Source: Nitrospirota bacterium (GTDB taxonomy: Bacteria > Nitrospirota > UBA9217). Taken from it: a DNA stretch of 64,000 nt. The notes beneath the pieces are model-generated. The model saw only the letters and a program-made list of their open reading frames with translations. It had not been told where the DNA came from and searched no databases. Of this stretch, positions 340 to 30,857 are shown piece after piece (positions within the stretch are counted from its first letter, which is position 1; every line of letters begins with the position of its first letter). Both the position numbers and the translations under genes were made by a program. The stretch is from contig JAGVOT010000128.1 of the NCBI GenBank assembly GCA_020052615.1, positions 72,250 to 136,249 on the forward strand. Direction: 5' to 3'.

Positions 340-552
340 ATGAGTGTACGAACGAACATCGTCATTGATGACGGCCTGGTCAACGAAGTGAAGGCCCTGA
401 CATCGCTCAAGACAAAAAAAGCTGTCGTCGACCTTGCACTCCAGGAGCTCCTGAAGCAGCTGCGGCGACGAAAGCTGCTCACCCTGAGGCGCAAGGGGCT
501 CTGGACGGGAGATCTGTCCCGCAGCAGAAGGGCGCGGCATGGTATTGATTGA
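340..552 (+). CDS. vapB: VapB-family type II antitoxin
   Basis: MSVRTNIVIDDGLVNEVKALTSLKTKKAVVDLALQELL... is typical of small antitoxins. A GGAGGTG RBS lies 7 nt upstream of the ATG at 340. The gene overlaps the downstream PIN gene by 14 nt. Confidence 0.7.
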   Translation: MSVRTNIVIDDGLVNEVKALTSLKTKKAVVDLALQELLKQLRRRKLLTLRRKGLWTGDLSRSRRARHGID

Positions 553-934
553 TACCAGCGCGTTCATCGAGTTTCTGAACCGCACGGGCGCCCGGGAAGA
601 CCTGATGATCGAGCGGTTGATCTCGAACAATGATGAGATCGCTATCCCCTCCGTTGCCCTGACCGAGATCCTCCAAGGCATCCGCAGCGACCACGAGCAT
701 GCCGAAATAAAAAAATCTCTCCTTACCTTCCCCTTGCTGTCGCTCCAGGATAATGAATCCTATTTGTCCGCCGCCGACCTCTATCGGAAGTGCAGGAAAC
801 GGGGGTTCACCGTCAGGAGCACCATTGACCTCTTCATCGCGCAGATCGCCATCGAACAGGGGGCTGAGCTGCTGCATCGCGATGGCGATTTCGACGCCAT
901 CGCCCGTGTTTCAGATCTCAAGATCTTTCACTAA
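539..934 (+). CDS. vapC: PIN-domain ribonuclease toxin VapC
   Basis: MVLIDTSAFIEFLNRTG... carries the acidic residues of a PIN domain. Translationally coupled to vapB. Confidence 0.85.
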   Translation: MVLIDTSAFIEFLNRTGAREDLMIERLISNNDEIAIPSVALTEILQGIRSDHEHAEIKKSLLTFPLLSLQDNESYLSAADLYRKCRKRGFTVRSTIDLFIAQIAIEQGAELLHRDGDFDAIARVSDLKIFH

Positions 935-937
935 CTC

Positions 938-2620
938 ATGCCCCTCTTCTACCCTCCCATAGATTTCGAAGCCGAGAAAGCAAGTGGTGACGAGATCAAC
1001 TATGCCGAGATCGCTGTACTCGAAGCGCTGGACAAAGGCCTCGACGACAAGTGGCACGTTTTTCACCGTCTCCACTGGCGCGAGGTGAGCCCGCAGGGCG
1101 AGAAGATGGGCGAAGCGGACGCCGTGATATTCCATCCTGTATATGGCATCCTGATCGTCGAGATCAAGGGCGGAGGCGTCCGGGCAAAGGACGGCGACTG
1201 GTTCCAGACCAATATCAGGACCGGTAAGGAGTATAAGCTCGACACTTCTCCCTTCGTGCAGGCCCGTTCCAGCCGCTTCCGCCTCTTCGACAAGCTCAAA
1301 AGGACCTCGCTCGGAGCAGGCTTTGAACCAAATACAGCCTTCACTTACACCGTCTGGTTCCCGGACATCACCTGGACCGAGGCTATTCCGGCGGATGCTC
1401 CGAACGGCGCATTTATTCTCGATTCCAAACACCTGAACAATCCGTCCCAGCACATCCGTAACATCCTGAAGCAATCCAACCCCCACGCGAAACCCTGGAC
1501 GGAGCGGGACACGAACATTCTCCTGCGGACCTTCGCTCCCGAGGTGAACCTGCTCGTCCCCCTCGGCGTAAACCTCGGCAGGATCCGTACCCGCATCTTT
1601 GCCATGACCGACAGCCAGCTCCGGGCGTACAAGGCCCTTCGGCAGCAGAAGCGGCTGCTCATAGAGGGCTGCGCCGGATCAGGAAAGACGCTTATCGCCG
1701 CATCCCTCGCCAGGGAACACCTGTCAGCTGGCAAGCGGGTGCTCTTCACTTGCTACAACAAGCGGCTCGCCCATGTGGTCGAGAATGACTTCGAGGGCAC
1801 ATCAGGCATCGACGTGGTGAACTTCCACGAGCTGGTTAAAAAGTACTGCGACGAGAGCGGAACCAAATACGCGGTACCCGATGGCAGGCAGGAGAAGGCC
1901 GACTTCTTCAAGAGTACCTGTGCAGAGCTTCTTCTGGACTGCTCGAGCAAATCTGATAAGCGCTATGACACGATCATTGTGGACGAAGCCTTCGATTTCC
2001 AGGAGACCTGGTGGACAGCGGTGGAATCACTAGGCGCGGAGGGATTTTCCTTCTACGTTTTCTTCGATCGAAACCAGGCGGTCTTCACAAACAGTACGTC
2101 GTGGAAGCCGCCCTTTGAAGCAGACCCTATCGTCCTGGAAACGAACGTTCGGAACACCCGACCTATCGGACGGTTCGCCGCAAAGCTCGGCAGGATAGCC
2201 GAAGCCCCTGATTACGGCGTGAACGAAGGCCCGGAGCCTGTGCTGCTGCCCTATAAGTCCGTCGACGAGATCCCCGAGATGCTGAAGAAGCTGCTCACAG
2301 AACTTACGGGCAAACAAAAGATCCTTCCGGGCAACATCGTCGTCCTGTCGCCGTACAAGCTGGACCACGAACGGCTGGGACTGGAGCAGTTCGTGAAGGA
2401 ACAGGAAAAACTGATCAGCACGGACCTGGAGGATGCGGAACAAGGAAAAGTCCGGATTGGGACGATTCAGTCATTTAAAGGATTGGAGGCGGATGTGGTG
2501 ATTCTCTGCGGCATCGACGGCCATCAGCCCGCCTGCAGCCCGACGAACCTCTATGTCGGCGCGACGAGGGCAAGATCGATGCTGTATGTGATGCATCAAG
2601 AGAAAACCCATATCCCTTAA
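938..2620 (+). CDS. NERD-domain protein fused to a UvrD-like superfamily-1 helicase
   Basis: N-terminal NERD-like region (AEIAVLEAL...GEADAVIFHPVYGILIVEIKGG). Walker A (CAGSGKTLIA) and Walker B (TIIVDEAFDF). C-terminal UvrD_C-like segment (IQSFKGLEADVVIL...YVGATRAR). Confidence 0.8.
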   Translation: MPLFYPPIDFEAEKASGDEINYAEIAVLEALDKGLDDKWHVFHRLHWREVSPQGEKMGEADAVIFHPVYGILIVEIKGGGVRAKDGDWFQTNIRTGKEYKLDTSPFVQARSSRFRLFDKLKRTSLGAGFEPNTAFTYTVWFPDITWTEAIPADAPNGAFILDSKHLNNPSQHIRNILKQSNPHAKPWTERDTNILLRTFAPEVNLLVPLGVNLGRIRTRIFAMTDSQLRAYKALRQQKRLLIEGCAGSGKTLIAASLAREHLSAGKRVLFTCYNKRLAHVVENDFEGTSGIDVVNFHELVKKYCDESGTKYAVPDGRQEKADFFKSTCAELLLDCSSKSDKRYDTIIVDEAFDFQETWWTAVESLGAEGFSFYVFFDRNQAVFTNSTSWKPPFEADPIVLETNVRNTRPIGRFAAKLGRIAEAPDYGVNEGPEPVLLPYKSVDEIPEMLKKLLTELTGKQKILPGNIVVLSPYKLDHERLGLEQFVKEQEKLISTDLEDAEQGKVRIGTIQSFKGLEADVVILCGIDGHQPACSPTNLYVGATRARSMLYVMHQEKTHIP

Positions 2621-4542: not shown

Positions 4543-4616
4543 GAGGAATATTCTCCATTTTTAGATACAACGCCGCCTAAAGGTACGTGCTTGTTGGTAT
4601 TGTTGATAGATGACAT

Positions 4617-5354
4617 TCATCGCTTTGTGCTCTTGATAAAATTATAGAAGGCGATAGTGTTTCTGATTTTATTTCTGATTTTTCTTTCTTTGCACAAGCC
4701 ATGCGTTTGAGGTTTTTTCAAAAAGCTTTTCTCTATTAAAAAATTCAAATCAATATCCTGTGGGTTTTGGATTGCATGATCAGCCCAATTATACGCATAG
4801 ACCTCCTTCACAGTTCTATTCTTGAAAGGTATGGCGTATCGTGCAATAATTTTGTCTTTTTCGCATCTCAATTTTTCTTCATCACTGATTTTTTCAAAAC
4901 ATACGTCTGAAATCCAGCACCCGATCCAATCTTGTGCTTTTTCTTTTTCGAAAGCTTCTAAAAGTGGTTTTCCGGTAAGCATATCTTCGCAGGCGTAAAA
5001 TTCACCGCATGTGACTGTACCTCTGATTGGTAAGGCAAAGCAAATAGCAGCTTCAAACATACCGCGACAGGCATGCATAATTGTCTGGAAGCCTGTATCG
5101 GAGATTTCGTTTGTATAAATCAAAAAAGTATCAGCATAACTAAGTATTTTTATAATATCCTTTTGTAATGCATAATTCAATTGACTTTCAACATTTGTTG
5201 TAATCATGCGTTTCATATTCTTTTGGTCTATAGCAATTTTTTCAACGGTATTTACTTTGATCCAATCACGATATCCAAGAATATCGAAAAGAGCTATAAA
5301 ACCATACGTCGTATTGATGTCTTTTGGAGTAAGATTTAAGAAATTACAATTCAT
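4617..5354 (-). CDS. Minimal class-III nucleotidyl cyclase-like protein (adenylyl/guanylyl cyclase fold, PycC-like size).
   Basis: Motif spacing matches the class-III cyclase core. FIALFDILGYRDW matches F-x-D-I-x-G-F-T. ADTFLIYT matches the GD-[FY] metal site. IRGTVTCGEFY matches the R-I-G-I-H-x-G loop. GKPLLEAFEKE...IGCWISD matches the G-x-x-V-N-x-A-x-R-L-E ... I-x-V-S region. 245 aa. Confidence 0.5.
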   Translation of the reverse strand: MNCNFLNLTPKDINTTYGFIALFDILGYRDWIKVNTVEKIAIDQKNMKRMITTNVESQLNYALQKDIIKILSYADTFLIYTNEISDTGFQTIMHACRGMFEAAICFALPIRGTVTCGEFYACEDMLTGKPLLEAFEKEKAQDWIGCWISDVCFEKISDEEKLRCEKDKIIARYAIPFKNRTVKEVYAYNWADHAIQNPQDIDLNFLIEKSFLKKPQTHGLCKERKIRNKIRNTIAFYNFIKSTKR

Positions 5355-5434
5355 GGCAAATCCTCAAGAAAAACATGTTAAGGGGGACGTCAATAATACA
5401 TCGTGCCTATCTTATTATTTACTTCTGATACAAT

Positions 5435-5640: not shown

Positions 5641-5672
5641 TTTGATCTGCAAAACTATTTGCTCTAATTCAT

Positions 5673-7289
5673 TTATTTGCCCATAGCAGCATATACGGTT
5701 CGCTCGCAAAAAGTAATTGCCAGTTCCTGCTGCTCTAGTTCTTTTAGTCTATCAATGTCGTCGTGATTTTTCATGAAATCTAATAATTTTTCTTTTGTAG
5801 TATCTTTGTAGACTTTAAAAAAAAAGTCAAAAAGCTCTAAGTGTGTTTCTGCTTTCCCCCCTTGCTCTCTGTAAACACCAAAAAACGTATCAGGGTATTT
5901 TTGGTATGCGGCCAACTCATCCTTGGTCAACGGGCAAGTTGCGGTGATGGACCGCCCATCTTCCAGTCTGTAAACACCCAGTGCTTTATCCCATGCGACA
6001 GTTGCTTCAACAAGTTCTCCTACAATGTCCTTTCCGTCATTATCAGGATCAGGAATAAGATATCGTTTTCCAACTATTAATCTTGCCTCTGTTTTACCAA
6101 AAGCCATTTCGGGTGCTTCCCCGTCGAAAGTTGATGGAATCTCCGAATGTTCGCGATTAGATTTAATCAGGTGATACATTTCATAGTGATCTTTTCGAAT
6201 CCTCAGACCTTCTCGGATATCAGACGTTGATAGTCCATAGTTGAACTCCGGAATTTTATAACCTTCAACGAAACCAAATCCTAATATGTTGGTAGCCTCA
6301 AGATTAAATTGATAGGGAAAGTTGGTAAGGAAAACATAGGCTGCAGGCGCGGGATTCCCTTTAATGAGAAGTCTCTCTTCGAGCTCACGAAGATGGGCAG
6401 ATATTTGTCGGACAAAATCTTTTATTTCATCGTTATTAGCCCTTGGAGGGCTATTCAATTCAATAAACACAACTCTTGGATGGTCTGCCCGCTTTTTCAA
6501 TGCACGGTAAAGTTGATCAGCTATATTTAGGGACGGATCGCCACCTTTTCGGGCTTTTGCTTCTACAGAAAATTTATTTCCGGTTTCCTTGTATGTGGCT
6601 GTGAATTCACAATGCGATGTGCTACTATCTGTCTCATCCTCAAGCTCTAAGACGAATCCAGCTTTTATGAATGAAGCGGCGACAAATGTTTCATAATAGG
6701 CACCAAGGAACTGGTCCATATTTTTAAGTCTATGCACGAGGCTTTTTTGCAATTCTACATTGTGAGCGAGTAAGTATAGATTATAAGAAAGTCCGAGATA
6801 GGCGTCGAGCGCACCTGTGGTTGGTGCTGAATGTATTTCTTTTGACGTATTGAAATGCTCTTTTGTGTATCTGCTTACAAGTTCGGCCCATATAAGAATC
6901 GAGTGCCTTTTTTGTGGAGCTTTAGCCACTTCTCCTAGCCACCACTCTTGGCCAAAGCAGGTTTTTATGTAATCGAATAAGAAATCATGGAATGTTTTCC
7001 ACTTTTCCGACCAGCGGAGTTCATTGCCTACTGCAATATATCTTTGACCTTTAAATTTTTCTGAAATAATTGGTCTTCCAAGCCCTTGTTGTTTTTGTCG
7101 TTGAAATTCTAATGCCGCATGTTCAGCAATTTTATTTTGGATTGATTTTTCAAAAGCTAAGTTGCTGGGTATCATTTTTTGTCTTCCTGCCGCATCACCA
7201 TGACATTTTTTAACTTTTTTCCCACTACCACATGGGCAGGGGTCATTCCGTCTCAGTTTTGCCCTTCGGTTTTTTTTACTCATTAGCAA
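5673..7289 (-). CDS. SEC-C motif-containing protein with a large uncharacterised C-terminal region.
   Basis: N-terminus ...RRNDPCPCGSGKKVKKCHG is a SEC-C metal-binding motif. The remaining ~500 aa have no recognisable catalytic motif. Confidence 0.55.
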   Translation of the reverse strand: MLMSKKNRRAKLRRNDPCPCGSGKKVKKCHGDAAGRQKMIPSNLAFEKSIQNKIAEHAALEFQRQKQQGLGRPIISEKFKGQRYIAVGNELRWSEKWKTFHDFLFDYIKTCFGQEWWLGEVAKAPQKRHSILIWAELVSRYTKEHFNTSKEIHSAPTTGALDAYLGLSYNLYLLAHNVELQKSLVHRLKNMDQFLGAYYETFVAASFIKAGFVLELEDETDSSTSHCEFTATYKETGNKFSVEAKARKGGDPSLNIADQLYRALKKRADHPRVVFIELNSPPRANNDEIKDFVRQISAHLRELEERLLIKGNPAPAAYVFLTNFPYQFNLEATNILGFGFVEGYKIPEFNYGLSTSDIREGLRIRKDHYEMYHLIKSNREHSEIPSTFDGEAPEMAFGKTEARLIVGKRYLIPDPDNDGKDIVGELVEATVAWDKALGVYRLEDGRSITATCPLTKDELAAYQKYPDTFFGVYREQGGKAETHLELFDFFFKVYKDTTKEKLLDFMKNHDDIDRLKELEQQELAITFCERTVYAAMGK

Positions 7290-7404
7290 TTAACTTCCTG
7301 ATTTCGCCGCCGTGAGGGGCGCGTTTTTAGCGACCCTCTCGGCGTGGTTGAAATTATTGTGTCGTTTTTTATTCGCGCCTACCGAGCTGTCTATGTTGAG
7401 GTGC

Positions 7405-8061
7405 TTAAAGCCTGCGAAGTGATTGATCAATAGCTTTCATGACAACTGGCTTCAAGCGTGTATACAATGTTCTGACATCAGTAGCAGAAATAAGAACATC
7501 GCCTTTCTCAATCAAGGGGCGTGGATGCATATCCAGCAGCCGCTTCGTTGCTCTGCCGCTGTTGTGCGTAATACAGTTACGAATTTCCCGCGAGACAGAG
7601 ATAAAATTTGTAGTCCAAAGTTGATTAGCAACGGCTGGCCCATATGCGTCGTTCAGGTATTTCGTATAGTTTCTATCTGTCACACGAATACTCTTCCCGG
7701 TCACAGATGCAAGCAGTCGCACAAGAAGATTTTCGTAAGCATAGTAAATGGCGCAGAAGGAGCCTTCGGAAATTTTCCACAGCGATGCTTTAAATGCATT
7801 CAATTTGAGATATTCGTTCCATAAATCCTGCTTCGACTTTCCAATTATCGGTGTCGTGCTGTTAACCGCATCGTAGACCCCCGTTACATAAAGCCATGGC
7901 AATACAAATGAGCGCGAAGCTCCCCACCAATGCGCGGAAAAATCCTCTACTGGCTCCAATAACTCTGATTTTTCGACTGCGGCAAAAAGCTTAACGAACC
8001 ACTCTTTGTCGTGGAAGTCTGCGAAGCTAGATAAATCGCTTTCAATAAATATGGTTTTCAA
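7405..8061 (-). CDS. Hypothetical protein
   Basis: 218-aa ORF in AT-rich DNA, co-oriented with the cassette. No recognised motifs. Confidence 0.45.
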   Translation of the reverse strand: MKTIFIESDLSSFADFHDKEWFVKLFAAVEKSELLEPVEDFSAHWWGASRSFVLPWLYVTGVYDAVNSTTPIIGKSKQDLWNEYLKLNAFKASLWKISEGSFCAIYYAYENLLVRLLASVTGKSIRVTDRNYTKYLNDAYGPAVANQLWTTNFISVSREIRNCITHNSGRATKRLLDMHPRPLIEKGDVLISATDVRTLYTRLKPVVMKAIDQSLRRL

Positions 8062-8571
8062 TAAAAACCCCAGTTGTTAACGCGCTGGTGAAACGACGTT
8101 CTCTGAGCGACATTCTTGAAAAGCCAGATCAAAGTGCCGCAAGATATGACGCCATGTTAAGCAACATGCCAACTCCAAGAAGAAGCAGGCCACCTACGAA
8201 ATTACGGAATAGTCAAATTGAAAGGGAGTTGCAGCAATTCGTATAGCAGCAAATCGGAGTGAAATATACAGTATTGCGACAACTGGTAACTACAACAACT
8301 ACAGGAAGGACCATACACTCCATATTTCAGTCAGCATTCTTCAATTCTAGTGGATCTTGGTCCCCGTGGCGAACACCTACAAGAGTGCAGTCAGAAGCTA
8401 GCGATAATTCTGAAAATTACGAGATGAAATCTGGATTGAACACTAGCGTCACTCGCCGCTTTCAGCGAGTCGATGTGCACACGAATGTTAAGGATATCAA
8501 ATTTAAGATCAAATATTATGATTATGGTGTAGCAGGCTGTGTTCCATTTGTGATTTTCGTCCATGACTTCA

Positions 8572-9621
8572 TCATGAAACTCCAAGTCGCTGAAGAATAA
8601 ATCTAGCTATCTCCGCGGGTTGATGCTGTCGTGCATCGATGTACCCGTCAATGGAGAGAAGCCCCTCAATAGGAGCATCGTCAAACCGAACGAACATTAC
8701 TTGGTCATCCAGCTTCGCCTTGATCATGTCTCGGACGGATCGCCACTCAAGGCCACACCATTGTTTGTCGGCATACTCTCCAGAAAGGAATATGACAACA
8801 AGATCAGAGCGATTTCGGTAAATGTCTTGTAGTAAGAAGTCTAGGTTCGGGCGGGATAACTGGGCCTGATAGTCAAAGTCGTAGAAGATCGAGTCGGTTG
8901 GAAGCTTCGGCCTGAGTTCATCCACGACCGATGATACGTGAAGGCGCCTCTCTCCAGGGAATGACATTGCAACGCGAAATCTGAGATGCTTGATGTCTGC
9001 AGTGGACCGATCCACCTTTCCAAACGCTTTATCGCGGAGGAGATGCTCAAGAGCAAGGAGAGAGAGGGAAAAAGGATCTGGCTCGATCCGCGAGGATCGC
9101 TCACGTCCTGGATTCGTAAGAGAAAGACGATACAGAAGGTAGTTGAGCCAAATCGCGAGTGGGTTGTCGTTCGAGCATGCGGTTGGCTTTGAAGATGGTA
9201 CACGTAACTTTTCAGACTTCAAAATATCATCGACAACCTCTAGCCGCAGAGCGTGTGCCTCATTTTTGTCAAAAAGAGAACCGGCTCGTTGCGCCATGCG
9301 AACAAAGAGATCGCACCCCTCTCCTTCAAGGATTCCCATGCACGTCAGGTCCGCGCCGCGGATACCCCACTTCAGGTCGCTCGATTCAATGCTCTTCGCA
9401 AGGCTCATAGCATTATCTTCGCCTTCGATAGCTCCGTAATATTGCCAAAGCATAATTGCATGGTTTGGACTTGCGAAGGCACGATTGAAGCTGACCCCAC
9501 TTTGAGTTACGTAAAACAGCGAGAAGCTCAAGGGGTGGAACTTGGCTGATTCAACCTCAAATGCTTTAATGAGTCTGGCAATTTCGTCTGTCTTATAGGA
9601 AAACGCCACGCTCTCTCCCAT
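8572..9621 (-). CDS. TIR-domain protein with an uncharacterised ~220-aa N-terminal domain.
   Basis: C-terminal region SIFYDFDYQ...RSDLVVIFLSGEYADKQWCGLEWRSVRDMIKAK...VMFVRFDD matches TIR hallmarks (DxFISY-like start, S-x-x-Y-x-x-S-x-WC-x-x-E). Confidence 0.6.
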   Translation of the reverse strand: MGESVAFSYKTDEIARLIKAFEVESAKFHPLSFSLFYVTQSGVSFNRAFASPNHAIMLWQYYGAIEGEDNAMSLAKSIESSDLKWGIRGADLTCMGILEGEGCDLFVRMAQRAGSLFDKNEAHALRLEVVDDILKSEKLRVPSSKPTACSNDNPLAIWLNYLLYRLSLTNPGRERSSRIEPDPFSLSLLALEHLLRDKAFGKVDRSTADIKHLRFRVAMSFPGERRLHVSSVVDELRPKLPTDSIFYDFDYQAQLSRPNLDFLLQDIYRNRSDLVVIFLSGEYADKQWCGLEWRSVRDMIKAKLDDQVMFVRFDDAPIEGLLSIDGYIDARQHQPAEIARFILQRLGVS

Positions 9622-9786
9622 TTTTTACTTAGAAGTCTGACCGCGTGAGTGTACCGTCGTACATTTCAGCGGACGGACACGACCGCTGTTTGGATTTATG
9701 TCTTTTTTGTCGCATTTCAATGGCTGATGCCCTTTTATTCATGATTGTGTCGTTCTATCTATTATCTGTATCTCTCGAAAACGCGC

Positions 9787-10914
9787 TTACTCGTCATTTC
9801 TGTCGTATCTCTGGACGCCGTTGAGCGAGCTATCTTCATCGCAGACTATTCCCACACTGTGTCTCGCTCTGGTGACGGCAACATAGAACTTTGCCTTAAC
9901 AGTTTCAATTTGTGCTAAGTCGCCGCTCTTCAGATATTCCCTTATTTTCTCCGTCGGGTAGATAAGTACCGTCTTGAAAGTCAGCCCTTTGGAGGCCCCG
10001 TAATTGTAATCTGGTGATTTGGCGTTGTTATACCGCAATATTGTGGATTTGAATTTCTCCCGGTAGTGTTCGACGTCCGCCTCTTTGACAAGAAATACTC
10101 CTTGGTGATCGGGAATATCTCTTCTGCACTCCTCGCAGTCACATGGTTCGCATTGCGTATATTCTGGATAGAGCTTTGAGGAAAACTGACAGATTTGCTT
10201 GTTGTTCCTGTGGGATTTGTTCAGCGACTTCGTGTCTATGGGGCAGATGCCTTTCTGACACTTGTCCGATATGAACTTGCTTATTCCTCCACCGCGATAT
10301 TGCTTGTGCTTCGATGAATCATTTGTGGAATAGGTGCCTTGCCTCGGATCGCCTACCATGAGCACGTGTGCAGGAGATTTGAAGAACAGCTTTAGAAGTT
10401 CAAAATCCCATCCGGCTAAGTCCTGCACCTCGTCTATAAAGATATATGGATATATCCTGGTCAACCTATTGATAACCTCATTCCCAACTATCTTGTTGCA
10501 CTCATAAACGAATTTAGAAATCTTGTCCGAATATATCTTGAGATCCCTGGTGAAATAGAACTGGTTGAAACTATTTTCGCCCCAATATATAGGTCTGCCG
10601 CTCTTGTCACAATATCTCAAGCCCGACTTCCCTTCGATCAGATAGAATCCGATCTTCTCGGAAAACAAATCCCCCATGGCTCCCTGGTATGGTCTGACGC
10701 CGTGCTGCAACAAGAAGGAAAACCACGTTTGCACCGTGATGTTGCTAGGGATGCATTTCTTCTTTGCGAGTATTTTGTCTCTTATTTCCTTCTCGTTCGT
10801 TTCCGTGAAAGTGGTGATCAGAACATTAGCATCCTGGACAGTTAAAGCTTCTTCTACCAGAAGAGTCGTCTTGCCCGATCCGGCCGCGGAAATAATGAAG
10901 CTGTTTTCACCCAT
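9787..10914 (-). CDS. gajB: Gabija GajB, UvrD-like superfamily-1 helicase
   Basis: Walker A (ISAAGSGKTT). DEAD-like IFIDEVQDLAGWD. C-terminal KGLTFKTVLIY...YVAVTRAR. Lies immediately downstream of the OLD-family ATPase-TOPRIM gene. Confidence 0.75.
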   Translation of the reverse strand: MGENSFIISAAGSGKTTLLVEEALTVQDANVLITTFTETNEKEIRDKILAKKKCIPSNITVQTWFSFLLQHGVRPYQGAMGDLFSEKIGFYLIEGKSGLRYCDKSGRPIYWGENSFNQFYFTRDLKIYSDKISKFVYECNKIVGNEVINRLTRIYPYIFIDEVQDLAGWDFELLKLFFKSPAHVLMVGDPRQGTYSTNDSSKHKQYRGGGISKFISDKCQKGICPIDTKSLNKSHRNNKQICQFSSKLYPEYTQCEPCDCEECRRDIPDHQGVFLVKEADVEHYREKFKSTILRYNNAKSPDYNYGASKGLTFKTVLIYPTEKIREYLKSGDLAQIETVKAKFYVAVTRARHSVGIVCDEDSSLNGVQRYDRNDE

Positions 10915-10917
10915 AAT

Positions 10918-12606
10918 TTATCCGACGGCGTCAATGATATATTGAGGAAACTTTATGTCGGCATCCGTATCAAAAATTCTTAACGCGCACTCAGTTTTGT
11001 TGGCTTTCATGTATCTGTGCAAGTCGCCTTCGCTCTCATAGCTTGTCCCCAAGATAGCATTGAGCTTGGCCAGGCCGTTAGCTTTTACTAATTTCGGTTC
11101 GAGCGTATTGTAATTGAAAGGTCGCTTGTTTTTGCCAATCGTCAGATCGCCGGTATCTTCAGTCTCATCGCAGTAAATTTTGATGAAATCCTTCTCGTTG
11201 ACTCCCAGATAATTGGCATATTTCTCTTTTAAAGCTTCCACGTCCCCGTCATTGTCCGTGATGACGGTCACCGGTTTTGATATTTTTTCTGCTATTTCCA
11301 AGAAACGCAAAAAGGACGTTCCGACTGAAATGACATCAATCTCGTCCTGTATCGGCAACCTGCCACTGTGGGATAAGAGGTAGGCTTTCTGTATGACCAG
11401 CTCGTCAGAATCGCCCTCAACCAAGATGGCTTTTTTACACAGGATGAGCCGCAAGGTGTCAAAGCCCGCCAGCTTCTCAAAGTAGGCTTTCGTTTCTGGA
11501 TTCAGGTCGTTGAGTCGTGTTTCTTTTCTGAGGCCGGTCTCTTGATCGACGTTCAGCAGAATCAGACTGGCCAGCCCCAGTTTGTTGGCAACAAAGCTGT
11601 TATGTGTCGAGATGATTATCTGCTTTTCATCGTTACTGCCTTGTATATGCCTGATCAGCTGGCTAAGTTTGGTGTGAGACAGGTGATTTTCCGGCTCTTC
11701 TAAAAGCAAGACATTCGCTTGCAGTGACTTTTTGTGGCTCAGTGCCAGTTTCGTCTTTACGATGCATTGTTCGCCCTTGCCAACATGATGAAACGGCACA
11801 TCGTTTAAATATGTCGTCAGTGTACTTTCCCAAGCGTTCTTGGAAGACAAGTCTACTGACAACTCCACCTTCTTATCGGAAATATTTATCGCATCCTTGA
11901 TCAATTCGTTGACTTTCTTGATGGCGGGGTCGTTGTTGAAGGCATCCTTCATCTTTCTATGCGCCTGATCGATCTTTATCTTATTGGCCAAATCCAAATG
12001 GTCCTTAAGGATACGTGAAATATAGATATCGGAGCCGTCTTGGTAACGGTTGCTCGAGGAGTCTATCGGGGCTGACTTGATCGGTATCGAGATGGGCGTC
12101 ACTCTGTCGTCGCGAGCAAAGGATGACCATGTGAAATGATAATATTCCGTGGGTATTGATTGGATATCACCGCTCTTAATCAGTTCTTCATAATACGGCT
12201 GATGTGCTTCATCCAGAGATACCTTGAACTGGACGCCACAGGCTTTCTGCCTGGTTGAATTGCCGTTGCCTTCAAATAGCGCTTTCAAAGAATCGTCTTC
12301 TATGCCCCCGATAAATATTTCGATTAAAATGTGCGGTGGCAGCGGTATTGACCGGGAACAATCAGCCTGCCTGATGTTTTCCAAATATTCGTCCCTGACA
12401 TCATTATTGAAAATATCCTGAGTCATCTGTAACTTGAAATATCTGCCATGCAAGAGGCCGCTCAACGCCAGATGGATAGAGTCTAAGACGGTCGATTTTC
12501 CAGTTTCATTGTCGCCGACAAGAATATTGAGGCCTTTATTCAAAGTTAAAGAAAACTGCCCCTTGAAACATTTCAGATTTTCAATTATAACTTTTTCTAT
12601 GTGCAT
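10918..12606 (-). CDS. gajA: Gabija GajA, OLD-family ABC-ATPase plus TOPRIM endonuclease
   Basis: N-terminus VIIENLKCFKG...LNILVGDNETGKST (AAA_15/21 ATPase). ...LLLEEPENHLS...QIIISTHN (Walker B/D-loop). C-terminal TOPRIM (KKAILVEGDSDELV...VITDNDGD). Confidence 0.8.
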   Translation of the reverse strand: MHIEKVIIENLKCFKGQFSLTLNKGLNILVGDNETGKSTVLDSIHLALSGLLHGRYFKLQMTQDIFNNDVRDEYLENIRQADCSRSIPLPPHILIEIFIGGIEDDSLKALFEGNGNSTRQKACGVQFKVSLDEAHQPYYEELIKSGDIQSIPTEYYHFTWSSFARDDRVTPISIPIKSAPIDSSSNRYQDGSDIYISRILKDHLDLANKIKIDQAHRKMKDAFNNDPAIKKVNELIKDAINISDKKVELSVDLSSKNAWESTLTTYLNDVPFHHVGKGEQCIVKTKLALSHKKSLQANVLLLEEPENHLSHTKLSQLIRHIQGSNDEKQIIISTHNSFVANKLGLASLILLNVDQETGLRKETRLNDLNPETKAYFEKLAGFDTLRLILCKKAILVEGDSDELVIQKAYLLSHSGRLPIQDEIDVISVGTSFLRFLEIAEKISKPVTVITDNDGDVEALKEKYANYLGVNEKDFIKIYCDETEDTGDLTIGKNKRPFNYNTLEPKLVKANGLAKLNAILGTSYESEGDLHRYMKANKTECALRIFDTDADIKFPQYIIDAVG

Positions 12607-24216: not shown

Positions 24217-25401
24217 TCATGATGTTCTTGTAAGCGCCGATAACGCAGATTCCACCCAGCCGAAGCCGATTCTTTCTTGCTCAAGACGCAGATTCCTGCG
24301 TATTCGGTTGTCTCGCAAATCATCATAAAGCGCCCTTTCCTCCGGATGCAACATAGCCAAGTCGCGTAGAGTCTGCTTTTCTTCCTCGCCCCATAGCGTT
24401 TCAAATGCAAACAACGTATTGCGGTCCATCAGAAACGACTCTACGTGTTCAAATTGACTGCGAAGTTGATCAAGGATCGCGAAGCCATGGGTATCAATAT
24501 CACCCCAATAAACAATACGGCGGTGGGAAAGCCACTCGGCTTTACTCAACATCTCGAAACCGTAGCCCGCGCCAAAGATAACCATACTGTCTTTGACCTG
24601 CGGAAAGGCTAAGAAGTTGATCTCGTTCTCGGTGATGAAGACACGTGAGACCTTGGGCTCGATACTGGCAAAACTCTCAGCATCAAGGGTAATGTCCTGT
24701 ATAAGAGCGCCCGGCAATAAAGCGCGCTTTGGATCGATTACCCGAAAGCGGATGCGCTCCGGCTTATCACAAAATCCATAACGCTTTGCGAATTGCCTCG
24801 TTCCAGAGGCCGTCGGATCAATTACTGCGGGCGATAGGACGATATCCAGCAACTCTTCGAGCACTGCACGATGGGCTTCGATGAACTTGCTGTGGACACT
24901 TGGGAGGTCTACTTGTCTTAGGTACACGCCAGGGCGTGGATGTTTTTGTAGCCAGCCGACTATTTCTAGCAGCAGACTCCACTCGTTAGAGAGCTCTAAC
25001 GCGCGAATCGGCCGTTTGGCCAACCAGCCCACCACTTGAGGCTGGCGCTTACGTGTTACATCGATCAACGCAGTGAAGCGGGTAACATCTCGTTGTTTGC
25101 TAATGAGTGCCAAGGCATCTTCGACGGTATCGATCCATACCTCATGGGGTACAGCATTTTCACCGAAGACACGGTGCTTGAACTCACGCATCTCGACTCG
25201 GCAGTGAGGCATCGCCCGAAGCTCACTGATCCAGGTGCGCGCCTCTTCGAAGTGATCGGCCATTTCACCCGACGTAGGGCCTTTGAACAGCAAACGCTTC
25301 GGGAATAGCGACTCACCCGTAACAAGACTGGCCAGCAGTTCTCCCCGATCCCATAACTTTTGCACCTGGGCACGAAGGTTAACCGGCCTTGTCCAATTCA
25401 T
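24217..25401 (-). CDS. jetD: Wadjet JetD (DUF3322/DUF2220, Toprim/topoisomerase VI-like)
   Basis: C-terminal VIFGAGYGFEML...IVYWGDIDTHGFAILDQLR matches the JetD/MksG Toprim-like module. Last gene of a four-gene jet operon. Confidence 0.8.
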   Translation of the reverse strand: MNWTRPVNLRAQVQKLWDRGELLASLVTGESLFPKRLLFKGPTSGEMADHFEEARTWISELRAMPHCRVEMREFKHRVFGENAVPHEVWIDTVEDALALISKQRDVTRFTALIDVTRKRQPQVVGWLAKRPIRALELSNEWSLLLEIVGWLQKHPRPGVYLRQVDLPSVHSKFIEAHRAVLEELLDIVLSPAVIDPTASGTRQFAKRYGFCDKPERIRFRVIDPKRALLPGALIQDITLDAESFASIEPKVSRVFITENEINFLAFPQVKDSMVIFGAGYGFEMLSKAEWLSHRRIVYWGDIDTHGFAILDQLRSQFEHVESFLMDRNTLFAFETLWGEEEKQTLRDLAMLHPEERALYDDLRDNRIRRNLRLEQERIGFGWVESALSALTRTS

Positions 25402-28400
25402 CCGACTATCCTCGCTTTTTCCGCGTGGTAATCCTCAATTGAGAGATTACGCAGTTTGGACGCTCGACCTTCCTCATTCTGAACAAACCCAACGCTAGAG
25501 ACGAATGGTTCAATGATGTGAATTTTCTGCAGAGGTGTGACAATCAGGATCTGCAAGTTGAGTTGGGCAAACAGTCGCAAGCCGTACTGTGCGGAGTCAT
25601 CTGATCCTCGCCCAAAGGCTTCATCGATGACCACGAAACGGAAGGATCGGGAACGTACCGCTCCCCATTCAAGACCGAACTGATAGGCCAGGCTAGCCGC
25701 CAAGATGGTATAGGCGAGTTTCTCCTTTTGACCTCCTGACTTGCCACTCGAATCAGAATAGTGCTCGTGTTCGCTATTGTCCTCGCGCCAGCGCTCGCTG
25801 GCGGCGAATACAAACCAGTTCCGCACATCAGTGACCTTGGCTTCCCAACGCCGATCCTGCTCGGATAACCCCTCTCGACCTCGAAAGCGTTCGATAATAT
25901 GCTTAACCTGCAAGAACTTGGCTTCGGAATATTGGGTATCGTCAGAACCGGTCAGTGCCCCTTCGGTACAGGCGCGCAGGTCGGTCTGAAAATCTCGGAT
26001 CTCGGCATCCGGTGTCGGTTGAGCTTCCAGCACGATATAGCGGCCGGCATTGTAGTCGATCTGGGTGAGCGACTTGTTGATATGTGCGATACGTTCCTTG
26101 ATTGTTTCTCTCTCGCGGGCCAACTGCGATTGAAAATTCGCCACCTCGCGGATGGTGTTTTCGTTCAGCAATTCCTTGAATCGAGCTTCAAAACGAGGTA
26201 GATCGTCGTTTTTTAGTTGGTGAAGCATATTCCGGTATTCGACAGCTGCTTCTATGCTGGCATCTACCTCTGCTGTTTCCAGCTTGAATTCTTCTTTGTA
26301 CGACGCCATTGCCTGGATGATCTTATCGCGCATACGTGTGCGCTTCAGGTCTTCGGCATCGATCCTGGACTGTAACAAGTCGCGCATGTCACGCTCGCGG
26401 TTGTCACAGGATTCGACAGTAAGTTGATGCTCGCCCACGGTCTCGCTTCGTATGGCATTAAGACGCTCGAAATGGAATGAGTGGCTCGTTTGCTCGGGTG
26501 TACTGACCAGCGCTAAGGCCTGGTCACGCAAATCTTCGGCAGCTCTGAGCTTGGCTTGAGTAGCCCCCAGTTCTTGGGTTTTTTTCGCAAGCTTTATCTC
26601 AGTATCAGCGAGTTCACCGCGAAGTGCTCTCAGTCGTTCGCTCAATTGCTTGAGCACATCTGAGGCAGACTCGAGCCTTTGCTTCTCGTCTGTAAGCTGA
26701 GCCACCTCCAAGGCAAGGGACTGCCAGTCGATTTCACGAAAATCAACGTACTCATCGAGTTTCGACAACGCCGTAAGGCGTTCGTCGAGCGTTTTTTGGT
26801 CGGATTGAATCTTGCCAATGAGGACGCCCAATTCTCCCAAGCTAGTCTCCAACTTTCTTTCTTTGGCTTCCAGTGCCGCTATTTTCGCCGCGTTAGTCCA
26901 GCCCAGCACATAGCGACCGCGATCATCCAGCCGGTAACGGTCGTCTTTTTCGTGACGCTCGCCGGGAGACTTGATTTGGCCCGCAAGCGTGATGGCGCGG
27001 GTCTCACGACGGAACTGCTCCTGTGTTGTGCAGCATGCCAGGTCGAAACGGTGAGCCACTTCACGTTCGAGCCAGTCGTAGAAAGGAGAGTCAGGCTTGA
27101 TGACTATTTTCCGCGCAAGGGAATCCCGGTGCAGATTAGGCAGATCGCGCTGAGAACCCTGGCGTATCCGAAAATAGACCAAACGTCCCCTTAGATGTGT
27201 TCTGTCGACCCAGTGAGACACCGCTACATAATGTTTATCTGGTACCAGAAGCGACAGACCGAAGCTACGCAATAGCCGTTCAGCGGCCCCCTCCCAGTCG
27301 CGTTCATCGTCACGGACTTGCAGCAGTTCGCCGGAAAAAGGCATATCCTCTTCTGGCAAGCCGAGTGCTTCGCATAACGCAGCGCGCATGGACACCTGCT
27401 CACCGGAAATGTTGCTGCGCCGGACTTTTAGACTGTTTATTTCCGAGGTCAGCTTTTCGTGCTCCTGCTTGCCCTGTCGAAAGTTCACGCCTTGCTCAGT
27501 GAGTTCGTTTTGCAGCTCCGCTTCACGAGTTTTCAACCCATTGCCCAGATCTCTGAAGCGACCATGCAACATAAGGAACTCGGCTTCCGTTTCGGCCGTG
27601 GCTTCGCCGACGGCGCGCACTAGCTTTCCGTATCGCTGCGCTTTCTCCAATCTTTTTTCCCGTTCTGTATCTTTGCTGCGAATGTCGGCTGCTAATCGCT
27701 CAATCCGATCGCCGCCGTTATCAGCGATACTTTGCTTGAGCTCGCCTTCGGTCACTCGCTGCGCGTCACGGAGTTCCTTAGTCCGCTTGACCTGGCTGTC
27801 TTGACGTCTCCATTCTCCATCAAGTCCTGAGATACGTTTTTCTAGCAGGCCGAGTTTCAGGCCTGCGAAGTAGGGTCCCAGCGCCTCGCGACAGGCGCGG
27901 AGTTCCTCCACTTGGGAAAGAAGGGAGTTATAGCGTTCACAATCAGAGACCAACGGTGAGAGCAGTTCCAGTTGACGCTTGGCCTTCAGTACAGCCACGT
28001 GCGCCCGGTTCAAGTCATCAAAATGGGCGATCAAGGCAGAGACGCGTGGCTCAACATCAAAAGGTTCAAGCATATGGCTGCGGACGAAGTCAGTCAGGTT
28101 ACCCACCGACTTCATCGACACCGTTTGGTGAAATAGCTCCAGTGCCTGTTCGTTCTCGATACCGAATCGACGACGAAACCAGGCGCCATAGGTCGGAAAA
28201 CTGTCAACCACCTCTGCGCCCAGACCACGCAATTTCTTCCGCAATCCGGTAATGTCCGGGCCGAAATGCGCGAAGTCCTCCGCAATCGACAATGCTCGCT
28301 CTGCGCCTACAAAGAAGCGGGCAGGCTGCGTCAGGGAGTCTTTCATCCAGAAGACCTGTGCCAGCGTGACCGTTTGTTCGTAGCCCGCGTTATGAAAAAC

Positions 28401-28772
28401 TCCCAGGATAACAGAGTAATTATTGTGGTCGCGAAGCGCTACAGGTTTGGCTGTGCCACTCACCTCATTGCGCTCGGACTTAAAATGCCCGAGCACATAG
28501 GATCGTAGCGTGCGTTCCTTGTTGTCGGCCCCGGCTGCCTTGTTGTAGGCGATGCGGTGCGCCGGCACCAGCAGCGTGGTGACCGCATCCACCAGTGTCG
28601 ATTTGCCCGATCCTATATCGCCGGTGAGCAAGATGTTCTTGCCGCTCGGATTCAGCGCCCACACTCGGCCATCAAAGGTGCCCCAGTTGAATACCTCTAG
28701 ACGATGCAAACGGAAGCCCGAAAGCACATCGCCGTCTGCACCAGCCAGACCCACGGTTTGCGCATCATCCAT
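25398..28772 (-). CDS. jetC: Wadjet JetC (SMC-like ABC ATPase)
   Basis: N-terminal Walker A (LLTGDIGSGKSTLVDA). Long coiled-coil middle. C-terminal signature/D-loop (GKSGGQKEKLAYTILAASLAYQF...FRFVVIDEAFGRGSD). Start placed at MDDAQTV to avoid overlapping jetB. Confidence 0.85.
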   Translation of the reverse strand: MDDAQTVGLAGADGDVLSGFRLHRLEVFNWGTFDGRVWALNPSGKNILLTGDIGSGKSTLVDAVTTLLVPAHRIAYNKAAGADNKERTLRSYVLGHFKSERNEVSGTAKPVALRDHNNYSVILGVFHNAGYEQTVTLAQVFWMKDSLTQPARFFVGAERALSIAEDFAHFGPDITGLRKKLRGLGAEVVDSFPTYGAWFRRRFGIENEQALELFHQTVSMKSVGNLTDFVRSHMLEPFDVEPRVSALIAHFDDLNRAHVAVLKAKRQLELLSPLVSDCERYNSLLSQVEELRACREALGPYFAGLKLGLLEKRISGLDGEWRRQDSQVKRTKELRDAQRVTEGELKQSIADNGGDRIERLAADIRSKDTEREKRLEKAQRYGKLVRAVGEATAETEAEFLMLHGRFRDLGNGLKTREAELQNELTEQGVNFRQGKQEHEKLTSEINSLKVRRSNISGEQVSMRAALCEALGLPEEDMPFSGELLQVRDDERDWEGAAERLLRSFGLSLLVPDKHYVAVSHWVDRTHLRGRLVYFRIRQGSQRDLPNLHRDSLARKIVIKPDSPFYDWLEREVAHRFDLACCTTQEQFRRETRAITLAGQIKSPGERHEKDDRYRLDDRGRYVLGWTNAAKIAALEAKERKLETSLGELGVLIGKIQSDQKTLDERLTALSKLDEYVDFREIDWQSLALEVAQLTDEKQRLESASDVLKQLSERLRALRGELADTEIKLAKKTQELGATQAKLRAAEDLRDQALALVSTPEQTSHSFHFERLNAIRSETVGEHQLTVESCDNRERDMRDLLQSRIDAEDLKRTRMRDKIIQAMASYKEEFKLETAEVDASIEAAVEYRNMLHQLKNDDLPRFEARFKELLNENTIREVANFQSQLARERETIKERIAHINKSLTQIDYNAGRYIVLEAQPTPDAEIRDFQTDLRACTEGALTGSDDTQYSEAKFLQVKHIIERFRGREGLSEQDRRWEAKVTDVRNWFVFAASERWREDNSEHEHYSDSSGKSGGQKEKLAYTILAASLAYQFGLEWGAVRSRSFRFVVIDEAFGRGSDDSAQYGLRLFAQLNLQILIVTPLQKIHIIEPFVSSVGFVQNEEGRASKLRNLSIEDYHAEKARIVG

Positions 28773-29406
28773 TGACGGCCCTTCCAGAGGTCGCAGCAAG
28801 CTGTGTCTGGTAGGCTGCCAATCGCGCATCGAAATCGGCCAGCCATTGTGCGTCCACAAAAGCCCTGAGAATTCGCCGCACCTCGAACATTTCTGCCTGC
28901 CCTATGCTCGGTTTAAGCCTGCGCAGGAATCCTAATTCAACTATCTTATTCAGATAGGTTTCAATCTGGTCGATTAACTTGGCTTCATTGCTGCTTTCGG
29001 GAAGGAACACCCGGATCAATTCAACGATGTCTTCACGGGAAAGCACAAGGCGCGTGTCGCCACCACTCGCGTCGAACTCTGCAAGCTTCTTGCGCAGCAG
29101 CGCCAGCAGCAGGCTCACCGGAAACGACAACGGACGCCGAGCCACCAAGCGCGGATGTTTTGAAGCCGCGTCTTCTTCACTTTCCTGGCGCGATTGCAAG
29201 AAGGCATAGCCCTCTGCCTCGTCAAACACCAGCTCCAGGCCCAGTACAGCCACATAGTCACGCACACGAGCTTGCAGGTTGAGCAAGGCGGTCCAAAGGC
29301 CGGCGTCAGCTTCTTGATAGATCACACCTTTGAGCAAGAAGATAAGCAGGGCCGACAAATCATTCGTTACCGCGGTGTTTACAGGTTTTTCTTCCGTCAT
29401 CTTCAC
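28765..29406 (-). CDS. jetB: Wadjet JetB (DUF4194)
   Basis: Size, position between jetA and jetC, and acidic/helical composition match JetB/MksE-like proteins. Confidence 0.65.
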   Translation of the reverse strand: MKMTEEKPVNTAVTNDLSALLIFLLKGVIYQEADAGLWTALLNLQARVRDYVAVLGLELVFDEAEGYAFLQSRQESEEDAASKHPRLVARRPLSFPVSLLLALLRKKLAEFDASGGDTRLVLSREDIVELIRVFLPESSNEAKLIDQIETYLNKIVELGFLRRLKPSIGQAEMFEVRRILRAFVDAQWLADFDARLAAYQTQLAATSGRAVNG

Positions 29407-30857
29407 CTCACAAAGATCACGCGCGGCAGACGTGCCTGCTTCGCATATTCCTGGCCAAGCGGACCTTCACAGTCCCAGACGACTGTTTCTGTCACGTTTT
29501 CATCCACCACGCTCTCGAAGACGCCACTGGCAAGCTGTAAATACGCCACCAGCTCTGCAAGGCCATGCTGCAGCGGCTGTATCTCGCACAGCTCACGCAA
29601 CGTAATTTGGGGACGATCCTGCAGGGCTTTCCGGATATGCCTGGCCAGTTGGTCTTTATCTATCACCACTTGAGTGTACAGTGCTACCGCATCCACTTCG
29701 GCGTCGCCTGACTCCAGATCGATATCGACAATCAAAGGTTTGATGGCAGGGGTATAGAGTGGCCTTTCCATCGGCAATTCGATGTCGGCAGCGATGTCTG
29801 CAATGTTCATCACCTCGCCCGGGGGCGGTGACTCTCGCAGTGCCAGTGACTTGGCCTCGATACCGTGCAGGATATCCATTATGCGGCGGTTCTCCAGCCA
29901 AGCCTGATCATCCAGAAAGCGCCGTAACTGCTGCGAAAGCTGGGCTACCATGCGCTGCGTATGCTCGCCAGCCTCAAGCCAATCGTAATGCAATCGGCGG
30001 GTGCGTGCGTCGGGCTTGAGCTCGGCGACCGCAGGCAGGGTCAAGACTCGATCAAGCAGCGCCGACAATTCGTCCTGCCGGCTGCTGGACATCAGGAAGT
30101 CCCAAAATGCGCGAAAACTACGTCCCTGATCCGAATCTGCAATCGCATCGCGTTCGCCCATGATTTCTTGCAGCAGCGTTCCTTTTGAACCCTCCCACAG
30201 CGCGATGCGTTCCCGCACGTGCCGATCCAGCCTAAGAAAGTTGTGTTCCACCTCTCGAAAATCGGTGAGCAGTTCACGCGCTAGCTGAATAAACTGTTGA
30301 AAGCGGTCCTTCAATGCTGTGTCGTCCAATAACGGAATGTCACCTGACAAAACGCGGGCAATTTCAGCATCAATCGCATCGCGTCGCTTATGCAATTCCA
30401 CAATACGAACTCGCGGATCAGTTTCGGTGCCTGCGTTCATCTGTTTGAGCAGTTCGAACAGTGTTAGCAAGCGCGACTCTGTACCCACGAAACTGCGCTC
30501 GGTGAGCGTTTCCAACCACGCAATCGCCTTCTCGGTCGCCGGGGTCAAATCGAAATGCGGCTCGTCCGAATCCTGCACGTAGAACTTTCGCAGCCAACCC
30601 TTCTCAGTCCCTGCCCAGTCGTTGAGGTAATCAAGCGGTGACTTCGGGAATGCGTCTGCGCCCAACCGTTCGCGCATGGCAAACAGTTCATCCTCAAGAG
30701 CCTCGGCCAAGTCCGCCTGAGATATCACTCGCACATTGTGTTCGATGAACACGCGCTGCAGAAAACTCGCCACCAGCGGCGCATGATCCGAGCGTAAAAG
30801 CCGCCAAGCAGGGTGGCTCTGCCGCAATTGATCGAGGGTTGTATAGTCGAGGGTCAT
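29403..30857 (-). CDS. jetA: Wadjet JetA (DUF3375, kleisin-like)
   Basis: 484-aa first gene of the operon. Overlaps jetB by 4 nt. Composition and size match JetA/MksF. Confidence 0.65.
   Translation of the reverse strand: MTLDYTTLDQLRQSHPAWRLLRSDHAPLVASFLQRVFIEHNVRVISQADLAEALEDELFAMRERLGADAFPKSPLDYLNDWAGTEKGWLRKFYVQDSDEPHFDLTPATEKAIAWLETLTERSFVGTESRLLTLFELLKQMNAGTETDPRVRIVELHKRRDAIDAEIARVLSGDIPLLDDTALKDRFQQFIQLARELLTDFREVEHNFLRLDRHVRERIALWEGSKGTLLQEIMGERDAIADSDQGRSFRAFWDFLMSSSRQDELSALLDRVLTLPAVAELKPDARTRRLHYDWLEAGEHTQRMVAQLSQQLRRFLDDQAWLENRRIMDILHGIEAKSLALRESPPPGEVMNIADIAADIELPMERPLYTPAIKPLIVDIDLESGDAEVDAVALYTQVVIDKDQLARHIRKALQDRPQITLRELCEIQPLQHGLAELVAYLQLASGVFESVVDENVTETVVWDCEGPLGQEYAKQARLPRVIFVR

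Follow-up and report, generated by a model that had tools for sequence, protein, structure and literature searches.

Does the TIR-domain gene that lies in a defence island of a Nitrospirota bacterium act alone or with the gene next to it, and what does the unrecognised part of its product do? The gene is carried by a 64-kb stretch of contig JAGVOT010000128.1 (assembly GCA_020052615.1), the whole of which is called here the window. Its product, X-TIR, is composed of an N-terminal domain, named here X, followed by a C-terminal TIR domain. An earlier note, made from the letters of the window, had proposed either a standalone TIR effector with a new sensor domain or a two-gene system involving a neighbouring open reading frame (ORF) of 218 amino acids (aa). 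We consider it somewhat probable that X-TIR would be a self-contained, horizontally mobile, single-gene immune module, in which X would sense or regulate and the TIR domain would consume nicotinamide adenine dinucleotide (NAD+). The two-gene system was rejected.

The X-TIR gene and its TIR domain

8572..9621, minus strand: X-TIR gene, from the ORF list; 349 aa from ATG 9621, probably 345 aa from GTG 9609
8980..9621, minus strand: N-terminal domain X, residues 1-214 (folded core about 4-196), alpha/beta; from profile, AlphaFold2 (AF2) and Foldseek
8575..8979, minus strand: C-terminal TIR domain, residues 215-349; from Pfam TIR_2, a PDB profile match and Foldseek
8746..8748, minus strand: codon of E292, the putative catalytic Glu of the W-C-G-L-E motif; from alignment with RPS4 and RUN1, translation checked

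Both minus-strand ORFs described earlier, one of 349 aa from an ATG and one of 218 aa from a TTG, are present, co-oriented and separated by 510 nucleotides (nt). Judged by their homologues, 589 and 86 respectively, they are real genes under selection. The X-TIR homologues were retrieved from a collection of 5.8 billion proteins; the top 120 span the whole protein (342-430 aa), with 60-75% identity. As nearly all X-TIR homologues begin at position V5, and as a Shine-Dalgarno-like GGGAGAG is found at 9612-9618 on the minus strand, 5 nt upstream of GTG 9609, the ATG start is probably four codons too early and translation probably starts at this GTG, which gives a protein of 345 aa.

The C-terminal part of X-TIR, in which TIR hallmarks had been noticed, is recognised by family, by profile and by fold. 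The peptide quoted in the earlier note, VVIFLSGEYADKQWCGLEWRSV, corresponds to residues 275-296, and its WCGLEWRS is encoded at 8737..8760 on the minus strand. Pfam TIR_2 (PF13676) matches residues 270-338 with 32.3 bits, for a gathering cut-off of 28, and the same family is precomputed on nearly all homologues. When the X-TIR family profile was compared with PDB sequences, the TIR domain of RPS4 was matched at E 7e-4 and that of RUN1 was also matched, and in these HMMER alignments E292 falls on the Glu of the plant WC..EL motif. This Glu is the known catalytic residue of enzymatic TIR domains. E292, W288, C289, G290 and L291 are each at least 95% conserved in 47 full-length members of the family. 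The full-length AlphaFold model (predicted local distance difference test, pLDDT, 75; predicted template modelling score, pTM, 0.68) retrieves with Foldseek the TIR domains of SNC1, RPP-T, RUN1, MyD88 and SPARTA, with probabilities of 0.98-1.0 and target template modelling scores (TM-scores) of 0.5-0.67. The region thus models as a TIR fold and keeps its Glu. All these results show that the C-terminal 135 aa or so are a TIR domain with a catalytic-type Glu.

Elsewhere, the same TIR subtype (residues 195-346, about 50% identity) is joined to parts other than X. As read from the sequences, it opens a protein of 901 aa whose long C-terminal region is rich in repeats (L076) and closes one of 1175 aa that contains WD40 (L069), a placement that recalls TIR proteins resembling nucleotide-binding leucine-rich repeat (NLR) receptors; X-TIR differs from these in that it has neither NTPase motifs nor repeats and carries instead the compact, 200-aa X. 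The TIR subtype is also found, in a sister family of about 293 aa, behind a different, unannotated N-domain of about 145 aa (MYNLLVT...RTHWAVKDEDLFEIL), encoded at loci L058-L071, L073 and L074 (e.g., L059:7608-8492). A relationship between X and this other N-domain was considered and rejected, the hhalign probability being 0.1%.

Domain X

The N-terminal part had been presented as novel, and this view was borne out. Residues 1-214 have no match in Pfam, NCBIfam, PADLOC or PHROGs, and a profile built from 53 X sequences gave nothing credible against PDB sequences. When X is modelled alone with AF2 from the same, diverse set of 53 sequences, a confident alpha/beta fold is predicted (pLDDT 90.9, pTM 0.87), with helices and strands in the order H-E-E-H-E-H-H-E-H-H. 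Searched with Foldseek, this model has no relative among PDB structures (best E 0.07, with a probability of 0.08; query TM-score not above 0.19) and no credible fold match in the BFVD viral library. As far as the predicted model allows comparison, X is thus without counterpart among described families, solved structures or viral predicted structures (PDB, BFVD).

X is not restricted to X-TIR. Against 1.84 billion representative proteins, its profile matches 109 clusters, mostly X-TIR, and TIR_2 is matched in 27 of the 53 longer X-bearing representatives. In the other arrangements, X lies C-terminal to the TIR domain (P0237, P0240, P0257) or is joined to a TIR/SEFIR domain (P0252), to PNP_UDP_1 phosphorylase-type domains (P0246, P0249, P0275), to a CHAT protease (P0255) or to an HNH nuclease (P0309). 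In one case it is followed by three transmembrane helices and WD40 repeats (P0247), and no second domain can be recognised in some X proteins of 267-391 aa. A metagenome scan for X architectures without TIR returned 10 short loci, which were mostly X-TIR again. A 963-aa protein that could have been taken for a 14-repeat X protein (P0296) was discarded; it is a perfect tandem repeat of one 68-aa unit and is therefore almost certainly an assembly artefact. On these architectures, X behaves like a rare, portable regulatory or sensing module with interchangeable effectors.

The two halves of X-TIR do not diverge at the same pace. Mean pairwise identity within the family is 0.48 for X versus 0.62 for TIR, and falls to 0.31 versus 0.55 in the most distant pairs; X is the better conserved half in 6% of the pairs. 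Faster divergence of this sort is what one would expect if a sensor were coupled to a conserved enzyme. X has nevertheless kept several motifs (ExxRLxxxFE, PNHxIxLWQYxG, IEGxxxxLFxRMAxRAGS, NxNPLAxWLN and DPFxxSL) and about 20 near-invariant residues across phyla, mostly polar or aromatic, among which E13, R16, H54, Q60, R112, N151, D182 and S187.

These near-invariant residues would also suit an X that is not a sensor at all, but a further domain with catalytic or toxic activity, or a scaffold for assembly, regulation being then ensured elsewhere, by expression control or by an unlinked inhibitor. The position of X in P0247, where an output domain would be expected, and the X proteins devoid of a recognisable second domain are in line with such a role. 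We nevertheless regard it as improbable, since X matches no enzyme fold or family and is nearly always joined to a known effector domain, and since an unregulated TIR NADase would be toxic, yet no antitoxin-like neighbour is conserved.

Short all-alpha domains, of which pairs are encoded in neighbouring genes, are said to act as effector-associated or Death-like adaptors. X resembles these adaptors of bacterial conflict systems (Kaur et al., 2021; PMC8195603) as a small domain recurrently fused to TIR, CHAT, PNP and comparable effectors, and differs from them in being alpha/beta, about 190 aa long and present once per locus. Indeed, with a hidden Markov model of X, a single copy was detected at each of 54 loci and a single copy in the window, so that a role of X as a homotypic adaptor pair was rejected. 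The sole double match comes from the Bryobacterales locus L043, where X-TIR is split into two overlapping ORFs (L043:7878-9280) and is, for this reason, likely a frameshifted gene or a pseudogene.

Distribution and neighbours of X-TIR

One genome per species was scanned (185,579 species), and at least 192 loci were found to encode a relative of X-TIR. The best 79 of these were fetched, 48 of them with the full X-TIR architecture. The hosts belong to the Beta-, Gamma-, Alpha- and Deltaproteobacteria, Campylobacterota, Planctomycetota, Verrucomicrobiota, Bacteroidota, Acidobacteriota and Spirochaetes, and include a Brevibacillus; two conjugative Bradyrhizobium plasmids also carry the gene. The family was not found in a phage collection, in IMG/VR or in E. 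coli genomes.

No gene accompanies X-TIR through this distribution. When the ORFs of the 48 full-length loci were clustered all against all, the only widely shared ones were X-TIR itself and its own shadow ORFs, and the largest cluster of neighbours comprises 7 of the 48 loci, at varying distance and on varying strand. No Pfam or PADLOC family is represented more than three times among the 148 nearest neighbours of X-TIR relatives. A small partner ORF hidden beside the gene was looked for and rejected: once near-identical relatives are set aside, all the small flanking ORFs that are shared prove to be antisense shadows of the 5' end of the TIR gene. Even the closest relative, at 75% identity (L084), has neighbours that differ from those of the window. 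The standalone half of the earlier proposal thus holds, in that X-TIR has no conserved partner.

The surroundings of the relatives are often, but not always, those of a defence gene. Some adjoin Thoeris, CBASS or restriction-modification genes or integrases, and some lie among housekeeping genes. Virulence factors are known among bacterial TIR proteins of comparable size. A non-immune role, as a host-directed virulence factor of the Tcp/Btp kind or in NAD metabolism or signalling, might be proposed from these two points, but its probability appears very small. The carriers are mostly free-living environmental bacteria of many phyla, the gene occurs patchily, as if spread by horizontal transfer, in defence islands and on plasmids, and no secretion signal is evident when the X-TIR sequence is read by eye. 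Moreover, no housekeeping gene is consistently tied to the homologues, a linkage that would have spoken against an immune function.

X is also found in what may be a different, multi-gene context, in which the gene for a TIR-X protein, whose TIR domain is N-terminal, is preceded upstream by an HSP70-like gene and by those of a TIR fragment of 71 aa and an unrecognised protein of 384 aa (L088:2743-7059).

Relation to Thoeris, CBASS and other NAD+-degrading systems

X-TIR resembles ThsB of Thoeris, as a small cytoplasmic TIR protein with a catalytic Glu and a non-TIR part thought to sense infection. Moreover, a homologue occupies the ThsB position of a Thoeris operon at two loci. In Poseidonibacter ostreae (L035:95-5103), ThsA, ThsB, X-TIR, a second ThsB and a TIR protein are encoded on one strand with short gaps, the last gene giving a 377-aa protein with an N-terminal TIR domain of the same subtype and an unrecognised C-terminal half; in Colwellia (L037), X-TIR follows ThsA and ThsB after a gap of 53 nt. 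A ThsA/ThsB pair is also found 2.3 kb from X-TIR in L008, and a ThsB_TIR gene two genes downstream of it in L084.

X-TIR could thus be a ThsB-type signal generator, in which X would sense infection and the TIR domain would make a cyclic-ADP-ribose (ADPR)-like or ADPR-conjugate signal for a ThsA-type effector encoded elsewhere in the genome. The X-TIR proteins of the Thoeris-associated loci are only 45-52% identical to each other, which indicates that these associations arose independently, and such a recurrence could be counted in favour of a Thoeris function. The comparison of sequences also indicates that they were not retained: the closest relatives of the L035 protein (84-85% identity; L032 and L034) have neither ThsA nor ThsB within the fetched flanks. 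In agreement with the earlier note, which had seen no ThsA-like partner, no ThsA or ThsB homologue was found in the window, the search for ThsA being made by tblastn with two ThsA proteins; among the 48 full-length loci, ThsA is adjacent in L035 and L037 and nearby in L008, and about 45 have neither gene. X-TIR further differs from ThsB by a TIR domain that is C-terminal and of the TIR_2 type, and it is matched neither by the ThsB_TIR Pfam model (PF08937) nor by the PADLOC ThsB models (E <= 0.1). Finally, its TIR subtype also ends the large multidomain proteins L069 and L076, as do the effector TIR domains of NLR-like proteins. We therefore give the ThsB-type function a limited, though not negligible, probability.

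Alternatively, X could serve as the receptor of a nucleotide second messenger, with X-TIR as an accessory effector that would respond to the signals made in the same cell by CBASS (cyclic oligonucleotide-based antiphage signalling system), Pycsar, Thoeris or type III CRISPR systems. TIR, HNH, CHAT and PNP-type effectors are also found fused to SAVED, CARF and STING sensors. The repertoire of partners of X (TIR, HNH, CHAT, PNP_UDP) is thus one that is common to sensors of this type, and the predicted layout of X-TIR, a regulatory domain joined to a TIR NADase, is that of the TIR effectors of CBASS and Pycsar (TIR-SAVED, TIR-STING, PycTIR). The conserved polar core of X and the presence of a Pycsar cyclase in the window are consistent with such a function, as is the position of X-TIR after a CBASS operon, on the same strand, in Bradyrhizobium and Mesorhizobium. 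On the conjugative plasmid pBb323S2b of Bradyrhizobium barranii (L086:2656-9026), X-TIR comes 50 nt after the SAVED-nuclease effector that closes a type II CBASS operon, whose other genes are MPN/JAB, ThiF E1 and a small one that likely encodes the cyclase; L039, L041 and L042 have two upstream ORFs in common with this locus.

This association is, however, confined to one lineage, apparently that of L039, L041 and L042, in which SMODS and SAVED matches occur three times among the 148 scanned neighbours, and no cyclase is conserved near X-TIR. The Pycsar cyclase of the window is 22 kb away and has its own overlapping gene for a probable transmembrane effector. Besides, X has neither sequence nor fold similarity to SAVED, STING or cyclic nucleoside monophosphate-binding domains and is unlike any solved fold, though the PDB contains SAVED, CARF, STING and SLOG domains, and it diverges faster than would be expected for the receptor of a fixed ligand. 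A messenger-receptor function appears unlikely, a little more so than that of a ThsB-type generator.

SpbK, SEFIR and DSR1/DSR2 each unite, in a single chain, a domain that degrades NAD+ and a non-catalytic one that recognises a phage cue, and these systems are found in mobile elements and defence islands. Their single-gene layout is the one proposed here for X-TIR, whose X has no detectable homology to their sensor regions. The N-domain of X-TIR likewise has no match in PADLOC, which covers several single-gene NADase systems.

A proposed single-gene mode of action

In the self-contained immune module that we favour, the TIR domain would be the catalytic part, an NAD+-consuming enzyme using E292, and X the sensing or regulatory part, which would keep the TIR domain inactive at rest. 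A cue of infection, either a phage component or an infection-linked small molecule, would act on X and drive self-association of the protein. TIR active sites would then be formed across subunits, and NAD+ would be depleted, leading to abortive infection, or an ADPR-derived product would be released. The genomic context points to a defence role; the NADase activity and its activation through oligomerisation are predicted by analogy with known bacterial and plant TIR enzymes, and a sensor role for X is suggested by its architectures and divergence.

Several observations weigh against this mode of action. The near-invariant residues of X suggest a small-molecule pocket or an enzyme rather than a fast-evolving sensor of phage proteins, and P0247, with X at the expected position of an output domain, suggests that X may do something else than sensing. 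The location of X-TIR inside a Thoeris operon (L035, L037), or after a CBASS operon in one lineage, means that it may depend on other systems, and some relatives have housekeeping surroundings. The TIR part of the full-length AF2 model has a moderate local pLDDT. Lastly, no description of the X-TIR family or of its domain was found in the full-text literature.

The 218-aa gene and the spacer

7405..8061, minus strand: separate 218-aa gene, probably HEPN-type, with a TTG start; from homologues, a conserved motif and weak profile matches
7564..7581, minus strand: R-N-C-I-T-H (residues 161-166), Rx4H HEPN-type motif of the 218-aa protein; from the translation
8062..8571, no strand: spacer of 510 nt between the 218-aa and X-TIR genes, with no called gene and not conserved in related loci

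The gene next to X-TIR had been described as unknown. This holds insofar as the 218-aa protein has no significant Pfam or PDB match, but it is not featureless. Its 86 homologues are mostly of 210-240 aa, and in 39 sequences of the family R161 and H166 are invariant and N162 is at least 90% conserved, which defines an R-N-x3-H motif. The PADLOC model RTasHEPN, of HEPN proteins associated with defence-associated reverse transcriptases (DRT), matches weakly the protein of the window (E 0.0066) and 16 of the 39 family members (best E 6.7e-4), and one homologue is named RiboL-PSP-HEPN in UniRef. The protein thus resembles the HEPN superfamily, from which it differs by the lack of a significant family or structure match and by an uncharacterised region of about 125 aa ahead of its HEPN-like part. 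Given this motif and these profile matches, the gene can most likely be read as an accessory one of HEPN type, RNase-like and independent of X-TIR.

The remaining half of the earlier proposal, namely that the TIR protein works together with the 218-aa protein, could rely on the common strand, on the distance of 510 nt and on the location of both genes in a defence island, TIR and HEPN being both common defence effectors. The co-occurrence of the two genes was therefore checked. Homologues of the 218-aa protein are found by tblastn and jackhmmer in none of the 79 TIR loci and, conversely, there is no TIR gene at the five fetched loci of 218-aa homologues (L080-L083, L085). Four of these (L080-L083) represent three further relatives; the fifth, L085, holds the closest homologue, at 83% identity, among neighbours that differ from those of the window. 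The named taxa of the two families also differ. Because of this complete lack of co-occurrence, and because the nearest relatives of each gene have different neighbours, the two-gene system was rejected, and we give it next to no probability. The juxtaposition of the two genes is what a defence island would be expected to give.

In two Shewanella loci (L082:6001-8548 and L083:429-2976), the 218-aa homologue is followed, about 440 nt on, by a gene for a 484-aa Ser/Thr protein kinase. The two loci are not independent evidence, as the HEPN homologue is identical in both.

A gene or an RNA in the 510-nt spacer was also considered and rejected. The spacer has no Rfam match, no promoter or terminator signal above that of shuffled sequences and no called product, and its similarity to related loci is limited to one 54-nt match (8447..8498), 80% identical to the HEPN/DUF6438 junction of L085. 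A mechanical ORF of 113 aa on the plus strand (8259..8600) overlaps the TIR stop by 29 nt; it has no family match, and neither it nor its variants have an annotated product. The AT and GC skews of the spacer are both positive, unlike those of most flanking minus-strand genes.

The surrounding defence island

9787..10914, minus strand: GajB of Gabija, 375 aa; PADLOC E about 1e-134; directly upstream of X-TIR
10918..12606, minus strand: GajA of Gabija, 562 aa; PADLOC E about 1e-205
24217..30857, minus strand: Wadjet operon, with JetD at 24217..25401, JetC at 25398..28859 and JetA at 29403..30857
28765..29406, minus strand: 213-aa ORF at the JetB position of the Wadjet operon; from its position
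31216..32556, minus strand: Pycsar cyclase PycC, 446 aa; PADLOC E 4e-129
539..2620, plus strand: 131-aa ORF, then a 560-aa protein with NERD and UvrD-type helicase; helicase matched by the PADLOC DRT-associated NERD-helicase, E 2.5e-60
4617..5354, minus strand: 245-aa protein of no known family; N-terminal ALFDILGY resembles a class III nucleotidyl-cyclase motif, by eye
5673..7289, minus strand: protein of 538 aa, SEC-C zinc motif at its N-terminus, remainder unrecognised; matched in PADLOC by the SEC-C-like tails of CBASS E2 models only

With Gabija, Wadjet and Pycsar, the window is a dense defence island. The bases from about 3,000 to 13,000 have a GC content of 39-49%, versus 51-63% across most of the remaining window. 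A 178-aa ORF overlaps the start of PycC (locus 31216..33073, minus strand); it has several hydrophobic segments that look transmembrane by eye and probably encodes a PycTM-type effector placed upstream of the cyclase. From its sequence, the 131-aa ORF ahead of the NERD helicase resembles a PIN/VapC toxin. The window further contains a UvrD-type helicase of 1086 aa.

None of the genes that surround X-TIR is a conserved partner of it. Homologues of GajA, GajB and the SEC-C protein occur in none of the 79 relative loci; a link between X-TIR and the upstream Gabija was thus rejected, and this Gabija is a separate system. The 245-aa protein was likewise rejected as a cyclase partner. Its only homologue in the 79 TIR loci is encoded two genes downstream of X-TIR in a Granulosicoccaceae locus (L047:9834-10556; tblastn E 2e-6), which may be a coincidence or reflect another gene family of defence islands.

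Significance

TIR enzymes are an immune currency common to bacteria, plants and animals, in which the sensing step is the one that varies from system to system and is hardest to find. X-TIR provides a compact, single-gene case: a protein of 345 aa with no partner, encoded by at least 192 of the roughly 186,000 genomes scanned as species representatives and spread over many phyla. Removing the TIR and 218-aa "system" disposes of a false lead. By its sequence the family would represent TIR-based immunity, that is, a known kind of immunity, under an undescribed control domain. It is possible, if still tentative, that X represents an immune sensor or switch of a new class, with a fold absent from solved structures, which as a portable module would control at least four unrelated effector chemistries (TIR NADase, PNP-type nucleosidase, CHAT protease and HNH nuclease) and would enable one 345-aa protein to detect infection and to kill or arrest the cell with no partner. 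Since effectors of the nuclease, protease and nucleosidase kinds are also joined to X, identifying its cue would account for several uncharacterised protein families together, and X could give a small, transferable switch for effector domains. If this is true and if the cue of X is a conserved small molecule, it would be a new signalling input to bacterial TIR immunity.

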